Shown here: one piece after another, positions 5,122 to 21,514 of the stretch
Numbering within the stretch: position 1 is the first letter of the stretch
Layout: the number at the start of each line of letters is the position of its first letter
NCBI GenBank assembly: GCA_043803385.1
Contig: JAZDKA010000018.1
Location: 1 to 48,411, forward strand
Reading direction: 5' to 3'
Length of the DNA stretch: 48,411 nucleotides
DNA from: Patescibacteria group bacterium
Lineage (GTDB): Bacteria > Patescibacteriota > Minisyncoccia > Moranbacterales > JAKLHP01
Translations under genes and position numbers: made by a program
The notes under the pieces: model-generated
Seen by the model: the letters and a program-made list of their open reading frames with translations, nothing else
Told to the model about the DNA's origin: nothing
Databases searched by the model: none

Positions 5122-5208
5122 CGGAAGCGGGAGGATTCGAACCTCCGGTACCCTTTCGGATACTCCGGTTTTCAAGACCGGTGCGTTCAACCTCTCTGCC
5201 ACGCTTCC
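5122..5208 (-). tRNA. tRNA-Ser(TGA)
   Basis: GGAAGCG acceptor, CCGGT-CT-TGA-AA-ACCGG anticodon arm, long variable arm GTATCC-GAAA-GGGTAC, GGTTCGAATCC. Confidence 0.95.
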
Positions 5209-5324
5209 AATGTATCAATCTTAACAATTCTATGGCATTTTGTAAATTTATGCTAACATATAAGTAATTAAACATTATACATCAAACATTGATCGATGGT
5301 CAATGTTTGATGATCAATAGATTT

Positions 5325-6305
5325 ATGAAGCTAGCAATCAATGGGTTTGGGCGGATCGGAAAACCGTCTTTCAAAATTGCCTTTGAAAAAGAAGGTATTG
5401 AAGTGGTGGCGATTAATGATCTGACCGACATCAAAACTGCCGTCCATCTTCTCAAATACGATTCTTCTTATGGCAGATATGACAAGGAAGTCAGCGCTGA
5501 TGAGCAAAATGGCGAGATTATCGTTGATGGGACAAGAATAAAATATTTTTCCGAACCGGAACCGGAGAAACTTCCCTGGGGAGAATTGGGCGTGGATGTG
5601 GTTTTGGAATGCACAGGGGTTTTCGAAACTAAAGAGGACGCCGAAAAACATATTAAAGCCGGAGCGAAGAAAGTTATTCTTTCCGCGCCTGCCAAAGATG
5701 ATACGCCGGTTTATCTTCTGGGAGTGAATGAAAAGGATTATCAGGGAGAAAATATTATTTCCAACGGCTCCTGCACAACGAACTGTTTGGCGCCAATGAT
5801 AAAAGTTCTGGATGATAATTTTGGAGTGGAAAAAGGTTTTATGACAACCACGCATTCCTATACTAATGACCAAAAATTGTTAGATTTGCCTCATAAAGAT
5901 TTGCGGCGAGCCAGAGCGTCAGCACTCAATATTATTCCTACCACCACCGGAGCGGCTAAAACTGTGGGAAAAGTTTTGAAGCATTTAGATGGAAAACTGG
6001 ACGGCATCGCGCTTCGAGTTCCAACTCCAGTGGTTTCCATAACCGATTTCATCTGCACGCTGAAAAAAGAAGCTGCTAAGGACGAAATAAACAAGGCTTT
6101 TAAAGACGCGGCTTCAAATATTTTAGGAATTACCGAAGAGCCGTTAGTTTCTACGGATTTCAAGGGTGATGCGCACAGCGCGATTATCGATTTATCCTTA
6201 ACGATGGCGCAAGGAAATTTAGCGAAAGTAGTCGGCTGGTATGATAACGAATGGGGATATTCCAATAGGTTGGTGGAAATGGCACAGTTTGTATCTAGTA
6301 TCTAG
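5325..6305 (+). CDS. gap: Type I glyceraldehyde-3-phosphate dehydrogenase
   Basis: MKLAINGFGRIG, SCTTNCL active site, WYDNEWGYS. Start moved to the ATG at 5325. Confidence 0.97.
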   Translation: MKLAINGFGRIGKPSFKIAFEKEGIEVVAINDLTDIKTAVHLLKYDSSYGRYDKEVSADEQNGEIIVDGTRIKYFSEPEPEKLPWGELGVDVVLECTGVFETKEDAEKHIKAGAKKVILSAPAKDDTPVYLLGVNEKDYQGENIISNGSCTTNCLAPMIKVLDDNFGVEKGFMTTTHSYTNDQKLLDLPHKDLRRARASALNIIPTTTGAAKTVGKVLKHLDGKLDGIALRVPTPVVSITDFICTLKKEAAKDEINKAFKDAASNILGITEEPLVSTDFKGDAHSAIIDLSLTMAQGNLAKVVGWYDNEWGYSNRLVEMAQFVSSI

Positions 6306-6331
6306 TATATTGTATCTAGTATTTTAAATTT

Positions 6332-6359
6332 GCTCTCACATTTTTGCGAGAGCTTTTTT
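6332..6359 (+). terminator. Intrinsic terminator after gap
   Basis: gctctc...gagagc stem followed by a T run. Confidence 0.6.
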
Positions 6360-6370
6360 ATGCAAAAAAT

Positions 6371-6410
6371 TATTCTTCACTTAACACCGATCGGTGTTAA
6401 GTGAAGAATA
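6371..6410. repeat. Perfect 40-bp palindrome
   Basis: tattcttcacttaacaccga|tcggtgttaagtgaagaata, no spacer and no mismatch. Confidence 0.95.
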
Positions 6411-6441
6411 GGAATTTGATTTTAACAGGGATTGATTTTAT

Positions 6442-6470
6442 TTGACAAAAATAAGAAAATAGTCTATATT
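6442..6470 (+). promoter_or_regulatory. Sigma70-type promoter
   Basis: TTGACA-17 nt-TATATT. Confidence 0.65.
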
Positions 6471-6592
6471 TTACAAACCAATGGCATTGGAAGGGTCTCG
6501 CTAGTTGAAGTTATCAAAGTGGCAAATAAAGTCATTCACCTACACAAGCGGGACCCAATTTTTTAAAATCCAAAAAAGAGGAGGTGAGAAAA

Positions 6593-6718
6593 GTGAAAAA
6601 GGGCGACGAAAAAACTAGTAAGATCAACAAGGTAAAGGATACTAAGCTGACTGCTATTGCAGTCAAAACTCTTGTCGAGCAGGACGGAGGTTACCTCGGT
6701 CAAATCAATCTAAAGTAG
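6593..6718 (+). CDS. Small 41-aa protein of unknown function
   Basis: GGAGGTGA SD before a GTG start; MKKGDEKTSKINKVKDTKLTAIAVKTLVEQDGGYLGQINLK*. Confidence 0.55.
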   Translation: MKKGDEKTSKINKVKDTKLTAIAVKTLVEQDGGYLGQINLK

Positions 6719-6968
6719 AGTTTTCTCGCCCAGACAAAGTTTCGTCGGTAATATAGGCAATAGTCTATAAAAGCAGAGGTAATAAAAATTACCCTGTCGG
6801 TCGCATACGAACCGGTAGCCTTCGACTTTGTCATACGGGCACTCGGATTAATTTGTTGCATTTATCTCTGATAAAAATCAGAAATACATACAGTAAATAT
6901 CCAGTGCCTTTTTATTTGCCTATTTTTTATAAAAAAGCTTTATTTAAGCGTAAAATTAGTATCATAGA

Positions 6969-7032
6969 TTGACATTTTTGGCTATTGGGTGTATAATTAA
7001 CGGTTGACAATTTTTTAGCGTTTTGCTAGAAT
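6969..7032 (+). promoter_or_regulatory. Tandem sigma70 promoters
   Basis: TTGACA-17-TATAAT (6969-6997) and TTGACA-17-TAGAAT (7004-7032). Confidence 0.8.
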
Positions 7033-7039
7033 TGTCGAA

Positions 7040-7425
7040 CAAGTAAAGGGGGCGAGGGTTCCGGATACAGTTCGGCCTTGGGCTCTTGAATGAGCAGGCC
7101 AGGGGAACCCCCAGCAAATCGGCGGATATCGGGTAAGGAGAGGTATTGTTTATAAGAGCAGTAGTTCCTGCCCCTCTACTTTATCCATCGCGCCAGGCTT
7201 CATGCGGCGGCCCCATCGGGAAATCCGGCGCAGAGCTAGATAAGTTGGCCTCCCGTAAGGGAAATGCGCTACAGAAATCTAGCCCCGGATTCCCATCGGA
7301 ACCCCGCCCCCCCCGTTTCAGAAAGAGGTATGATGTGAAATTTACGTTCGACCATTGACCACGCAAAACCGAAAGGTTTAGCCGGGTTGCAGGTAACGTA
7401 TATCACACATACCTCTTATTTTTTT
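7040..7425 (+). ncRNA. Candidate stable structured RNA, family unassigned
   Basis: Follows the tandem promoters. GC-rich. gggggcgagggttccg (~7048) pairs with cggaaccccgccccc (~7297). A 3' long hairpin (7323-7417) precedes a T run. No credible ORF. Confidence 0.65.
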
Positions 7426-7641
7426 ATGCAGTATTTTTTAAAATGCTGTTTTAATTTTATATTTTTAAAAATGAATAAATTATAGTATAATGATTGAGTA
7501 GAAAATAAATACTAAAATTGAAATGCAGAAAATGAATGTCATCTTGATCCCGCCGAAGTGGGATCACTTGGAATGACATAGTTATTATGTTTGCCATAAA
7601 TACTTTTTACTTTTAACTTTATAAACTTTTGACTCCGTATC

Positions 7642-9966
7642 ATGTTTTTAAAAAAGATCGAAATTTCAGGATTTAAGTCTTTCGCGCAGAAAACCGTGTT
7701 GGAATTTGCCAATGGCAATGATACTCCAGATGATGGAAAAATGTTTCCCATTACAGCAGTAGTAGGTCCCAATGGTTCGGGAAAATCCAACGTGGCAGAT
7801 GCTATTCGCTGGGCGATGGGAGAGCAATCGATGAAAAATCTGCGCGGAAAGAAGTTGGAAGATATTATTTTTGCCGGTTCCGGAAAAAAAGAACGCCTGG
7901 GAAGAGCCTGGGTTTCTCTGCATTTTGACAATCACGATAAAAGGATTCCGCTTGAGTTTACCGAAGTTGTCATTACCCGAAAATTATTCAGGAGCGGGGA
8001 ATCAGAATATCTTATCAATGGGAGCAAAGTCCGTCTTTTGGATGTTGTCGATCTTCTGGCGAAAGCCGGCATTGGAAGAGAAAGCTACTGCGTTATTAAT
8101 CAGGGGATGTCGGATTCAGTTTTGAATGCGACTCCGTCGGAAAGAAGAATTGTTTTGGAAGACGCGGCCGGAGTAAAGCACTTTCAAATTCAGAAAGAAA
8201 GAGCAATTAGAAAACTGGATCTTACTAGAGAAAATTTGTCGAGAGTAGGGGATTTGATAAAAGAAATCGAACCGCATCTCCGAATGCTCAAAAGGCAAGC
8301 GGAAAAAGCGCAAAAAGGAAAAGATGTGGCTGAAAAACTGAAGGAAAAGCAGCTTAAATTATATTCCTATCTTTGGTACAGTTTTCAGGAGGAAAAGAAT
8401 AATGTTTTGGGAGAAAAGAATGATTATGGAGCCAAGATGATGAATGTTCAGCGCGAAATCGACAAAATTAACGACGAACTCAATAAATATTCCAAAGAAG
8501 TTCAAAGTTCGGAAAAACAGGAAGTGCTGGAAAAGAGAAAACAGGAATTTATCAGCAGGCTTAACGCGCTGGAAAAAGAACTGGTAATAACAGAAGGGAG
8601 AGCGGTGATAGAGGCGGAAAGAAGCAAAGCGCAGAAAATCATAGAAAGCATTCCGGTTGACCTGGAATATGTGAAAGAAAAACTTTCAAAAATAAGAAAA
8701 GATCAGGATAAATTAACCGAATTTTTGAAATCAGCGGAGAAATTGGAAGATCTGGAAAATATTAAAAAGATTGCCAAAGACATAGGTAGGGAACTGGCAG
8801 ATCTCTACGAGGAAGCGCAAAAGGGCGAAGTAATACAGGAGAACACAGAAGCGGAAAGGAATAACACAGAAACGGAGAAAAAAATAAAGGGATTAGGGGA
8901 TAACAAGACAAGATTAGAAAAAGAAATAGGAGAACTGAAAATTGAAATAGGGGGAATCGAGAAAGAGATAGAGCAAGAAAGAGAAGCGGGAAAAAAGGCT
9001 CGCCAGAAATTTTTCGATCTGGAAAAGGGAATTAGCCGCAAACAGGAAGAACTCAATAAACTGAAAGACCAGTTCAACGAGTATAAAATCAAACAGGCAA
9101 GAATTGAGGTCAGAGAAGAAGACTTAATGAGTGAAATCAAGCAGAAAATAAAACTTGAGCCGTCAGAACTCAAGTATGACGGCAGTGAAGTGAATAAAGA
9201 GGAGATGGGACGGGAAATTCAGAGGCTTAAAGTCCAATGGGAGCAGATTGGGGGAATTGATCCGATGATAGTCGATGAATATGAAGAAACCAAAAAAAGA
9301 TTTGAATTTTTAAATCAGGAGTCCAAGGATCTTGAGGAAGCGATAAAATCCTGTAAGGAAGTAATCAAGGAGATGGATGGGAAAATCAAAGACGTTTTCG
9401 AAGGCGCTTTCAAAAAAATAAACGAAGAATTTTCCAAATATTTTAAAATTATTTTCGGAGGAGGAAGCGCGCATCTAACTAAGTCGAAAGTCGAAAGTCG
9501 AAAGTCGAAAGTCTCGGAAGGAGATTTAGCGAATAAAGAATTAACTGAATCGGATGGTGAAAATATTGAAGATATAGAGGAAAGTGAAGAGAAAGAAGAA
9601 ATTGGGGTTAATATTTCCGCTTGTCCGCCGGGAAAGAAAATTAATAACCTCAATATGCTCTCCGGAGGAGAAAGATCGCTTACTTCTTTGGCTTTGCTCT
9701 TCGCTATCATTTCCCACAATCCGCCTCCATTTGCAATCCTGGACGAAGTAGAAGCAGCGCTTGATGAAGCTAATTCCAGGCGGTTTAGCCGGATTATCCA
9801 AGAGCTTTCCGATAATACTCAATTCATTACCATTACCCATAATCGGGAAACAATGCGCCAAGCATCATTATTATACGGCGTTACAATGGGCGAAGACGGA
9901 ATTTCAAAATTATTGTCTGTGAGATTAGACCAGATTGGCCAAGGCGGAAGAATTATCAATAGTTGA
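7642..9966 (+). CDS. smc: SMC-family chromosome segregation ATPase (short, no recognisable hinge)
   Basis: GFKSF, GPNGSGKSN Walker A, LSGGE signature, LDEVEAALD Walker B/D-loop, ITH, coiled coils; only 774 aa. Confidence 0.9.
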   Translation: MFLKKIEISGFKSFAQKTVLEFANGNDTPDDGKMFPITAVVGPNGSGKSNVADAIRWAMGEQSMKNLRGKKLEDIIFAGSGKKERLGRAWVSLHFDNHDKRIPLEFTEVVITRKLFRSGESEYLINGSKVRLLDVVDLLAKAGIGRESYCVINQGMSDSVLNATPSERRIVLEDAAGVKHFQIQKERAIRKLDLTRENLSRVGDLIKEIEPHLRMLKRQAEKAQKGKDVAEKLKEKQLKLYSYLWYSFQEEKNNVLGEKNDYGAKMMNVQREIDKINDELNKYSKEVQSSEKQEVLEKRKQEFISRLNALEKELVITEGRAVIEAERSKAQKIIESIPVDLEYVKEKLSKIRKDQDKLTEFLKSAEKLEDLENIKKIAKDIGRELADLYEEAQKGEVIQENTEAERNNTETEKKIKGLGDNKTRLEKEIGELKIEIGGIEKEIEQEREAGKKARQKFFDLEKGISRKQEELNKLKDQFNEYKIKQARIEVREEDLMSEIKQKIKLEPSELKYDGSEVNKEEMGREIQRLKVQWEQIGGIDPMIVDEYEETKKRFEFLNQESKDLEEAIKSCKEVIKEMDGKIKDVFEGAFKKINEEFSKYFKIIFGGGSAHLTKSKVESRKSKVSEGDLANKELTESDGENIEDIEESEEKEEIGVNISACPPGKKINNLNMLSGGERSLTSLALLFAIISHNPPPFAILDEVEAALDEANSRRFSRIIQELSDNTQFITITHNRETMRQASLLYGVTMGEDGISKLLSVRLDQIGQGGRIINS

Positions 9967-10059
9967 CATTTCTTGGCTTGTCTAGTAATATAATTTAGTA
10001 ATATTTATATGGATTTCATTCGGGAAAATGCTCTCTCTGAATGATTTTAATTGCAAAAA

Positions 10060-10533
10060 ATGCTTACTATCAGATTTAACCGAGTCGGGAAAAGAAACAA
10101 GGCTTATTTTAGAATTGTTCTCCAGGAACATACAATTGCTCCGGGAGGAAAACATATCGAAATTTTAGGAAGCTATGATCCACATCTCAAAAAAGCGGTT
10201 TTGAAAGCTGAAAAAATTAAAGAATGGATAAAAAAAGGAGCTCAAGCTTCCGATTCCGCTTATAATTTATTTATAAAAGAAGGAGTTTTGGAGGGAAAGA
10301 AAAGAGCGGTGAAAATTCCGAAGAAGGTTGAACCTGAAACTGCTGAAACCGTTGCAGACGATAAAAAATCAGATGAAGGAATCAAGCCCGAAGAATCCAA
10401 GGCAGAAGAAGTAAAAAAAGAAGAACCGAAAAAAGAACTCGCCGACACCAAGACTATGGCAGACAAGAAATCAAAGCAGGAAGAAGTGAAAGTTGAGGAT
10501 TCTAAAACTGAAGAAACTATTGACAAGAAATAG
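10060..10533 (+). CDS. rpsP: 30S ribosomal protein S16 with long charged C-terminal tail
   Basis: MLTIRFNRVGKRNKAYFRIV...IEILGSYDP...WIKKGAQAS. Confidence 0.93.
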   Translation: MLTIRFNRVGKRNKAYFRIVLQEHTIAPGGKHIEILGSYDPHLKKAVLKAEKIKEWIKKGAQASDSAYNLFIKEGVLEGKKRAVKIPKKVEPETAETVADDKKSDEGIKPEESKAEEVKKEEPKKELADTKTMADKKSKQEEVKVEDSKTEETIDKK

Positions 10534-20365: not shown

Positions 20366-20372
20366 TTTTATC

Positions 20373-20545
20373 TTCTGCTTTCTTTGGCAGCAAAGAAAGC
20401 GGAAAGAAAGAAACTGTCCGCACGGGCTCGTGCTGGGCAAATTCTGACGCTTGCTCGCTAAAATTTCAGTCTCTGCTTCGTTGCGAATACAAAATTTCTT
20501 AACGCTCGCAAGCTATAATTTGCTACGCACTTCGCAAGTGCGGAG
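20373..20545. repeat. MITE-like nested stem-loop element
   Basis: gctttctttg/caaagaaagc hairpin, then nested pairs tccgcac/gtgcgga, gcaaatt/aatttgc, gcttgc/gcaagc. Confidence 0.55.
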
Positions 20546-20572
20546 AATTTTTAATTACTGGTTTATTTAAAT

Positions 20573-20617
20573 AAAAAAAGAGAGGGGAATTCTCGTTGTT
20601 AGAGAATTCTCCCTCTT
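20573..20617 (-). terminator. Intrinsic terminator of micro-ORF transcript
   Basis: Minus strand agagggagaattctc...gagaattcccctct followed by a T run. Confidence 0.75.
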
Positions 20618-20653
20618 GCCAGGCGGATTAGTCCCTGGCACTGCATAATCCTC

Positions 20654-20764
20654 TTAGATGGTGTTGCTCTTCTTTTCCGTCGCGCTGGTCGCTCTCTTGT
20701 GGGCCATTGCGGCGCCGATGCCAAAGATTTGTACTGCTGGTGATGCTCTTGTGTTGATACGCAT
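20654..20764 (-). CDS. Micro-ORF, 36 aa
   Basis: GGAGGTG SD; MRINTRASPAVQIFGIGAAMAHKRATSATEKKSNTI*. Confidence 0.55.
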   Translation of the reverse strand: MRINTRASPAVQIFGIGAAMAHKRATSATEKKSNTI

Positions 20765-20858
20765 GTTCCACCTCCCATTTTGGCGGAATTGGTATGAGCG
20801 TCCAGAGGACGCGGTTTGTGATTCGCAGTGCGATTAACGCAACTGCACTGATGCCAAG

Positions 20859-20897
20859 TTATTTCGGCACATCTCTTGCCTTATGAAACAAAAACAT
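20859..20897 (-). CDS. Micro-ORF, 12 aa
   Basis: GGAGGTG SD; MFLFHKARDVPK*. Confidence 0.4.
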   Translation of the reverse strand: MFLFHKARDVPK

Positions 20898-20949
20898 AAG
20901 ACACCTCCTCTAATAAAGTTTTTTCCTGCTGAGTTCAGGGGGAAACGCA

Positions 20950-21009
20950 CTAGAGTCTCAGATCCTTAACGCTACCGAAGACCATTTGCCGTGAGATAAA
21001 TACACTCAT
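20950..21009 (-). CDS. Micro-ORF, 19 aa
   Basis: AAGGAGGTG SD; MSVFISRQMVFGSVKDLRL*. Promoter TTGACG-17-TATTAT at 21057-21029. Confidence 0.45.
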   Translation of the reverse strand: MSVFISRQMVFGSVKDLRL

Positions 21010-21068
21010 AGCACACCTCCTTATTTTAATAATATAAAATTAATTGTTTTTCGTCAAATTGAAATTTT

Positions 21069-21341
21069 ATGATAATTTCTAATTTTTCTCAAAAAGTTTA
21101 TGCTGTTGTCAAAAAAATTCCCAAAGGGAAGGTTTTGACGTATAAAGAAGTGGCAAAAAGAGCGGGAAGACCGAAAGCTTATCGGGCAGTAGGAAATATT
21201 TTGAGCAAGAATAAAAATCCCAAAGTTCCGTGCCACCGGGTAATTCGAAGTAATGGAAAGCCTGGTGGTTATAACGGATTAATTAGTAACAAGAAAAAAA
21301 CTGACATTTTGAGAAAAGAAGGAGCAATGTTGAAAGTGTGA
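21069..21341 (+). CDS. MGMT family (O6-alkylguanine DNA alkyltransferase) single-domain protein
   Basis: IPKGKVLTY, RAVG, PCHRV active site. Confidence 0.92.
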   Translation: MIISNFSQKVYAVVKKIPKGKVLTYKEVAKRAGRPKAYRAVGNILSKNKNPKVPCHRVIRSNGKPGGYNGLISNKKKTDILRKEGAMLKV

Positions 21342-21514
21342 TATATGTGATATAATAAAAATAAGTTTTAGCGAATTTAGAATTAGGAATTAAGAATTGA
21401 GAATGGGAAGTTAGAGTTTAGAATATAGGAATTATATTTTTTTCTGTGTTCTTTATTCCATATTCTTATTCTAAATTCAAAATTCATAATTCAAAATTCA
21501 TAATTCTAATCTTT

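Follow-up and report, generated by a model that had tools for sequence, protein, structure and literature searches.

Closest described RNAs

In E. coli, 6S RNA is transcribed from tandem promoters and processed from a precursor; a 6S RNA also binds the sigma-A holoenzyme and serves as the template of pRNA. The orphan RNA described here shares paired ends with 6S RNA (RF00013), but 6S RNA is an abundant hairpin of 180-200 nt with a central bubble (PMC9130861), whereas the orphan RNA measures 268 nt and is multi-branched. Ms1, which binds the RNA polymerase core, is likewise a stand-alone structured RNA, of about 300 nt; it is widespread in Actinobacteria with conserved synteny (PMC11077062, PMC9130861), whereas the orphan RNA has no Rfam match and its location ahead of smc is not a conserved feature of the order. 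CoRP of Corynebacterium is an abundant intergenic RNA that is cleaved, binds RNA polymerase and has close homologues nowhere outside its genus (PMC11077062). The two RNAs are alike in being intergenic and structured, in belonging to a lineage without recognisable 6S or Ms1, in having homologues only in close relatives and in cleavage from a longer transcript, which is inferred in the present case (PMC11077062). CoRP differs in its length of 516 nt (318 + 198) as against 268 nt, in its genus-wide presence between tRNA genes, whereas the orphan RNA was not found in two of three congeners, and in its demonstrated binding of RNA polymerase, which is proposed here by analogy (PMC11077062). When similarity and genus-wide synteny are taken as marks of Ms1/CoRP membership, the model of the orphan RNA detects a counterpart in none of the three congeners and the surrounding frame is found in one. 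Large SRP RNA (RF01854) and class A RNase P RNA (RF00010) resemble it in length and in a closing 5'/3' helix; unlike these, the orphan RNA has neither their conserved motifs nor a model score, Ffh was not found, and RNase P RNA is encoded elsewhere in the genome.

The orphan RNA is a new, weakly conserved structured RNA whose general kind is known and whose expression is supported by one library. Searches of the open-access literature, which leaves out most subscription journals, turned up no stable ncRNAs other than the housekeeping ones for the group. The CoRP paper proposes that each species has one such RNA, which bioinformatics can miss, and the idea that all bacteria have a single abundant RNA that binds RNA polymerase becomes testable in a minimal-genome lineage (PMC11077062), with a 268-nt RNA that has defined ends and RNA-library support and is easy to make in vitro.

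The transcription unit upstream of smc

The window, meaning the whole 48,411-nucleotide stretch analysed, is one contig (C18) of a Patescibacteria genome of 0.96 Mb, 37% GC and 95.6% completeness, labelled G000. A CPR-type bacterium agrees with this small size and with the failure to find Ffh/FtsY. The locus lies inside the 1.3-kb interval from gap (5289-6305) to smc (7642-9966); smc is on the same strand, begins 225 nt downstream of the unit and has its own promoter-like site at 7464-7491. The features of the unit are as follows.

6969..6997, + strand: promoter P1, TTGACA-17-TATAAT, perfect sigma-70 consensus (12/12)
7004..7032, + strand: promoter P2, TTGACA-17-TAGAAT, 11/12, extended -10 (TG)
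7004..7039, no strand assigned: imperfect palindrome over promoter P2, core TTAGC-N5-GCTA at 7015-7028, folds as a hairpin
7047..7314, + strand: folded RNA domain, 268 nt, 59% GC, multi-branched, folding z -3.95, exact RNA-library contig
7048..7063, + strand: closing helix P1, 5' strand, pairs with 7297-7311 (15 bp and one bulge)
7074..7100, + strand: hairpin P2 (ggcct/aggcc, 7074-7078/7096-7100), pair probability 0.99-1.0
7102..7214, + strand: arm P3-P4, weak outer stem (0.45-0.79) and strong inner hairpin 7121-7194 (0.88-0.99)
7218..7294, + strand: arm P5, ending in a GUAA tetraloop, main stems 0.89-0.99
7297..7311, + strand: closing helix P1, 3' strand, followed by three unpaired C to 7314
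7323..7417, + strand: long 3' hairpin, 95 nt, -40.9 kcal/mol, predicted terminator or processing stem
7419..7425, + strand: T7 run after the 3' hairpin, missed by a simple terminator scan

The two promoters, which the first-pass annotation had read correctly from the sequence, are 35 nt apart and would, from the usual sigma-70 spacing, start transcription near 7004 (P1) and near 7039 (P2). The whole genome contains 106 promoter sites matching at 11/12 or better, ten of them perfect, plus three tandem pairs, of which the pair described here is the strongest and the sole one with a perfect member. Tandem consensus promoters had also been taken as typical of abundant stable RNAs, a mark that proves not to be diagnostic in this genome, where six of the ten perfect promoters head an ORF of at least 90 aa within 115 nt. 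The palindrome over promoter P2 is possibly an operator, or else the 5' hairpin of the P1 transcript; in its full form it is a single copy in the genome, and among 69 regions upstream of smc its core occurs only in G000 and in the congener G003.

Behind the promoters, the region 7030-7430 folds with a z-score of -6.49 (0 of 100 shuffles as good), and the candidate stable product, 7047-7314, folds better than all 200 of its shuffles on the + strand, where z is -3.95 as against -2.92 on the - strand; the promoters, the T-run and this asymmetry together point to the + strand for the domain. Sampled structures are multi-branched in 2000 of 2000 cases and rod-like in none. The closing helix has a pair probability of 0.99 and is predicted to form in the full precursor as well. 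This helix and the internal stems that had been proposed were all confirmed in place, namely ggcct/aggcc in hairpin P2 and, within arm P5, gctagat/atctagc (7235-7241/7277-7283) and tccc-gtaa-ggga (7251-7262); arm P5 is without counterpart in the candidate core of G003. The second hairpin of about 95 nt is likewise real, with its stem base aagaggtatg/catacctctt (7323-7332/7408-7417), its aacc-gaaa-ggtt loop (7367-7378) and the T run behind it. As to the extent of the structured RNA, which the first-pass annotation had carried across both domains, the 268-nt first domain is seen in RNA, while the 95-nt hairpin looks more like a terminator or processing stem.

At 59% GC, the domain stands apart from the genome (37%), from its RNase P RNA (45%) and from its tmRNA (35%), and it contains the 250-nt window richest in GC among 99 non-coding regions of at least 300 nt, a sign either of selection for pairing or of a foreign origin. 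Long unpaired stretches are almost lacking in the domain, and complementarity elsewhere in the genome does not exceed 18 nt; on these grounds, and because Hfq was not found, an antisense RNA is disfavoured. A Shine-Dalgarno-like segment, AAGGAGAGG (7135-7143), is buried in the predicted stem of the inner hairpin 7121-7194. The 8-mer AGAGGTAT occurs in P4 (7139) and again in the 3' hairpin (7324).

Known RNA families and partner proteins

At gathering level, Rfam finds nothing in the whole window except four tRNAs, and at E up to 10 only chance matches appear near the locus, with no riboswitch family among them. A search for 6S, SRP, RNase P and tmRNA families at the locus, as had been suggested, gave no match. 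The earlier failure to find RNase P, tmRNA or SRP helix-8 signatures agrees with a motif scan that used the consensus motifs of these families. The Rfam null and an exact RNA-library contig together support the earlier reading of a structured RNA that is in no known Rfam family and is probably transcribed.

The housekeeping RNAs that were found lie elsewhere, tmRNA on contig C22 (RF00023, E 7e-51) and a canonical RNase P RNA on contig C13. The latter, of 586 nt (L001:1329-1914; G000 C13:3318-3903, - strand), is interrupted ahead of CR-V by a large insertion, about 160 nt in length; its P12 region is atypical, and it barely reaches the Rfam cut-off. In the genome, 6S RNA (RF00013) has no match at E up to 10, and neither small nor large SRP RNA was found; both 6S and SRP RNA were found in none of 61 searched genomes of the order. 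Ffh and FtsY were not found in the 95.6% complete genome, PF00448 staying below the cut-off, and neither were Hfq, CsrA, TnpB/Cas12f or Ro60, whereas RNase III is encoded.

Several assignments fail on these data. For 6S RNA, there is no RF00013 score and none of the 2000 sampled structures of the 268-nt domain is rod-like; for SRP RNA, there is neither an Rfam score nor a helix-8 motif, with Ffh/FtsY not found. An RNase P RNA would require CR-I and CR-V motifs for P4, which are lacking along with an RF00010 score, and short RNase P-like motifs in collinear order are at chance level against the genome's own rnpB. No T-loop motif for a tmRNA is present. The eight GGA of the domain are mostly in stems and CsrA was not found, which speaks against a CsrB/RsmZ-type sponge. 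A TnpB omega-RNA or Y RNA would lack its cognate TnpB/Cas12f or Ro60. The known partners CsrA, TnpB/Cas12f, Ro60 and Ffh/FtsY are ruled out because the proteins were not found.

Representation in groundwater RNA

The RNA data comprise three runs (X1, X2 and X3), all from one groundwater metatranscriptome study. Run X1 has 18% of the sampled words of 6300-7700 and, over 5200-9200, three contigs at 99% identity or better. One of these, 268 nt long, covers 7047-7314 with no difference at a depth of 13.7, 3-6 times that of the organism's two other contigs, which lie within smc (depths 4.1 and 2.1); contig data of this kind are uninformative on ends, strand and level, and the library may contain DNA. 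The contig ends 1 nt and 3 nt outside closing helix P1, and its 5' end falls some 8 nt past the predicted start of promoter P2. X1 has no exact piece over gap, the 3' hairpin or the flanks, missing cover that proves nothing alone, and X2 and X3 contain nothing that matches the RNA exactly, though its absence is not thereby proven. The metatranscriptome check that the first-pass annotation had called for thus matches the first domain exactly and leaves the 3' hairpin uncovered.

The 268-nt contig is the pattern expected from a discrete stable RNA. Its 3' end coincides with a C8 run, and a GC helix can stall reverse transcription, so removal of the 3' hairpin is something that we infer.

Conservation and the smc-upstream hot spot

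Among 101 genomes, smc was located in 99, and the DNA upstream of it was read in 69. The smc-upstream interval varies greatly: in many relatives rnc immediately precedes smc, in others there are unrelated promoter-plus-hairpin units, and a long-range GC helix occurs in six of the 37 intervals of at least 300 nt. As a site of orphan structured transcripts it resembles a hot spot. In G001, G015, G019, G026, G033, G040, G068, G075, G089 and G096, smc is preceded by unrelated non-coding units, 200-700 nt long, that are led by a promoter and rich in hairpins; a scan of ten smc-upstream loci gave no Rfam match.

The transcription unit is orthologous in two species, G000 and its congener G003, which has the same gene order, tandem promoters at the same position with the same 35-nt spacing, a nearly identical, palindromic P2, and upstream an orthologous ORF of 41-43 aa (44% identity) with strong matches in two of 319 genomes and one weak match. 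The stem base of the 3' hairpin is identical in G003, its pattern (up to 3 mismatches) being found in two of 319 genomes, so that the frame of promoters and 3' hairpin is common to one of three congeners. Between promoters and hairpin, G003 carries about 580 nt of other cargo, comprising a long hairpin, a Shine-Dalgarno sequence with a 34-aa ORF, and several folded modules. One 140-nt piece of this cargo is predicted to fold, in isolation, as P1-P2-P3-P4 without P5, and this candidate has the helix ends and two short internal motifs in common with the domain.

Homology between the cores is no more than suggestive, the similarity being borderline. As few as 20-28 of 1000 shuffles do as well in the helix-end test and 38-216 of 1000 in exact-match chains, while local alignment finds no similarity (z -0.79). 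Run against 150 genomes each, the single-sequence models R2 and R3 returned only their own source sequences and did not detect each other, a test weakened by an 80-nt arm present in one alone. A covariance model of the core has no hit in 149 other genomes, and by model the core was found in none of the three congeners; BLAST of the unit against 101 genomes yields just one 27-nt match, at the 3' end, in G003, and BLAST of the G003 unit against 319 genomes only short AT-rich pieces. The pair counts of the 3' hairpin, from three sequences of which one is poorly aligned, include two pairs changed on both sides, which is not significant (45 of 500 shuffles as high). The homologue and covariation check upstream of smc that had been proposed therefore gave no alignable core homologue, and covariation was not demonstrated.

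Wider pattern scans add no further locus. With up to one mismatch, the core pattern occurs in 23 of 319 genomes, chance-like beyond G000 and G003, as a reversed-pattern control also matched. In 185,579 species genomes it has 21 matches, with upstream promoters only at L274, where they are the same ones as at L139, the G003 locus. Viral contigs gave none, and 50,697 phage and 72,556 plasmid records gave no match. A 16-mer scan of metagenomes returned at least 120 loci, where, among the matches listed, none has a promoter and one low-complexity locus has a closing-strand match.

Proposed protein binding and the alternatives

The orphan RNA is likely a lineage-restricted, stable and real ncRNA, a decoy of the 6S/Ms1/CoRP functional type. 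Transcription from the tandem promoters would yield a precursor of about 380-415 nt with the 3' hairpin and T-run at its end; the hairpin would be removed from it, possibly with the RNase III that the genome encodes, and the helix-closed 268-nt domain would build up as a presumably stable RNA that may act by its shape, as a protein-binding decoy or scaffold. Protein binding through shape is suggested because the domain is fully paired and non-coding, lacks an evident antisense target and has none of the partner proteins usual for such RNAs. RNA polymerase would be the leading candidate partner, as in the functional class of 6S, Ms1 and CoRP, because the order has no recognisable 6S and because of the CoRP precedent (PMC11077062); as none of the 61 genomes searched in the order yielded a 6S RNA, the 6S role is without a recognised holder.

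A stand-alone ncRNA gene in the gap-smc interval that acts as a protein-binding decoy or scaffold is our preferred, tentative reading, and RNA polymerase specifically as the partner, proposed by analogy, is rather doubtful. Equally doubtful is the bolder claim of a new class of abundant RNA-polymerase-binding RNA with a four-way-junction fold, which would replace 6S in an ultrasmall CPR-type lineage and whose evolution would be so rapid that between sister species only the promoter/terminator frame is alignable. The exact 268-nt contig near the helix ends and the strongest tandem promoter pair argue for the decoy reading. Against it, a core homologue was not found in two of three congeners, while 6S, Ms1 and CoRP are at least genus-wide, and such absence makes a core role less likely; unlike that of 6S, the predicted fold is not rod-like in any sampled structure; the reciprocal models miss the G003 candidate; expression amounts to one contig in one of three runs from one study; and structure behind a strong promoter is common upstream of smc, given the unrelated units in many relatives.

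A close rival, and the nearest to the decoy reading, is a stable by-product of a fast-turnover cassette, with no function in trans: loss of the ORF from a multi-module transcript (5' hairpin, small ORF, folded tail, as in G003) would have left a nuclease-resistant tail. We hold this possible, if somewhat improbable, as the same promoters and 3' hairpin in G003 enclose about 580 nt with a 34-aa ORF and folded modules, unrelated promoter-hairpin units stand upstream of smc across the order, and the core is not conserved; yet the domain in G000 shows no decay, exceeding the G003 candidate in size and in firmness of closure, its 59% GC is maintained in a 37% GC genome, and a perfect promoter is retained in a streamlined genome. 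Even as a by-product, the RNA would illustrate how quickly intergenic hot spots give rise to new structured RNAs. The atypical GC, the patchy presence and the variable cargo at the site would fit an RNA component, or a remnant, of a mobile element or of a phage cassette (omega-RNA- or retron-like) recently inserted at a hot spot, an unlikely origin for a sequence that is single-copy in the genome, without TnpB/Cas12f, without a match in the phage and plasmid records or, by pattern, in viral contigs, and set in a frame common to a congener at the same locus. It is quite unlikely that the RNA is a cis-acting leader or switch of smc, or works via its Shine-Dalgarno-like segments: although smc follows on the same strand 225 nt downstream, strand exchange is conceivable with AGAGGTAT in both P4 and the 3' hairpin, and G003 has a similar internal repeat, helix P1, P4 and the 3' hairpin are each predicted to form at a probability near 1, smc has its own promoter-like site, no riboswitch family matches, and the RNA contig ends at 7314.

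There may be no discrete transcript, the contig being DNA carry-over or patchy cover of a longer RNA and the fold incidental. Low depth in a single run, and stalls at the GC helix or C8 run that could define the contig ends, would allow this, but both ends match helix ends, the contig is 3-6 times as deep as the other pieces, gap and the flanks are without an exact piece, the fold is significant and the promoter/hairpin frame is conserved, which together leave it improbable. A vestigial large SRP RNA or a diverged RNase P RNA paralogue is already largely refuted and very unlikely. A size near 270 nt with paired ends would suit it, as would several short stretches that resemble RNase P junctions in kept order, and CPR RNase P RNAs can be diverged (PMC8172020); but RF00010, RF00169 and RF01854 are scoreless at the locus even at E up to 10, the canonical rnpB is on C13, alignment of the domain to rnpB gives z 0.09 with 233 of 500 shuffles as good, and helix-8, CR-I and CR-V motifs are absent and Ffh/FtsY were not found. 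Least probable by far is an mRNA for a 70-aa ORF with a TTG start (7146-7358, + strand), which has AAGGAGAGG just upstream as its Shine-Dalgarno-like segment. That segment is buried in a stem at a predicted probability of 0.99, and the ORF has no Pfam match, family or homologue and extends past the end of the RNA contig. Together with 7181-7366 on the - strand it is one of just two ORFs of at least 60 aa, and the codon-usage score of both is at or below those of all 588 real coding segments, that of the 70-aa ORF lying under all of them, in keeping with the earlier statement that no credible ORF follows the promoters.

Neighbouring features

Directly after smc stands rpsP (window 7642-10533). 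In Firmicutes, ftsY and ffh sit between these two genes; neither was found in this genome. The SMC protein is short, 774 aa, as it is in most of 99 relatives (about 710-855 aa). After gap, a near-perfect 40-nt palindrome (6370-6411) recurs in related form on at least four further contigs (C34, C16, C1 and C41) and looks like a dispersed REP-type repeat.

Just upstream of the tandem-promoter unit lies a second orphan unit (6442-6915, + strand), with a promoter at 6442 (11/12), a 5' hairpin, a Shine-Dalgarno sequence at 6580, an ORF of 41 aa (6593-6718) and then a multi-hairpin 3' part with a terminal T-run. The 41-aa ORF has a 44% identical counterpart in the corresponding position in G003; beyond that, neither 319 genomes nor the protein collection gave a strong match. 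The G003 unit contains an exact copy of the RNase P CR-I motif (L139:1012-1023 region) just upstream of its GC-rich domain; Rfam has no match there, and the overall alignment to rnpB is at chance level.

Upstream of smc in four relatives (L139, L147, L149 and L157), Ala/Ser-rich ORFs of 30-43 aa recur with a strong Shine-Dalgarno sequence and a GC-rich motif of CCGGC(C/G)CCGG type within 25 nt of the stop. A similar 36-aa ORF occurs in the window at 20654-20764 (- strand), in a hairpin-rich minus-strand unit (20366-21445), and these ORFs with their GC-rich motif are possibly a peptide or RNA-motif family.
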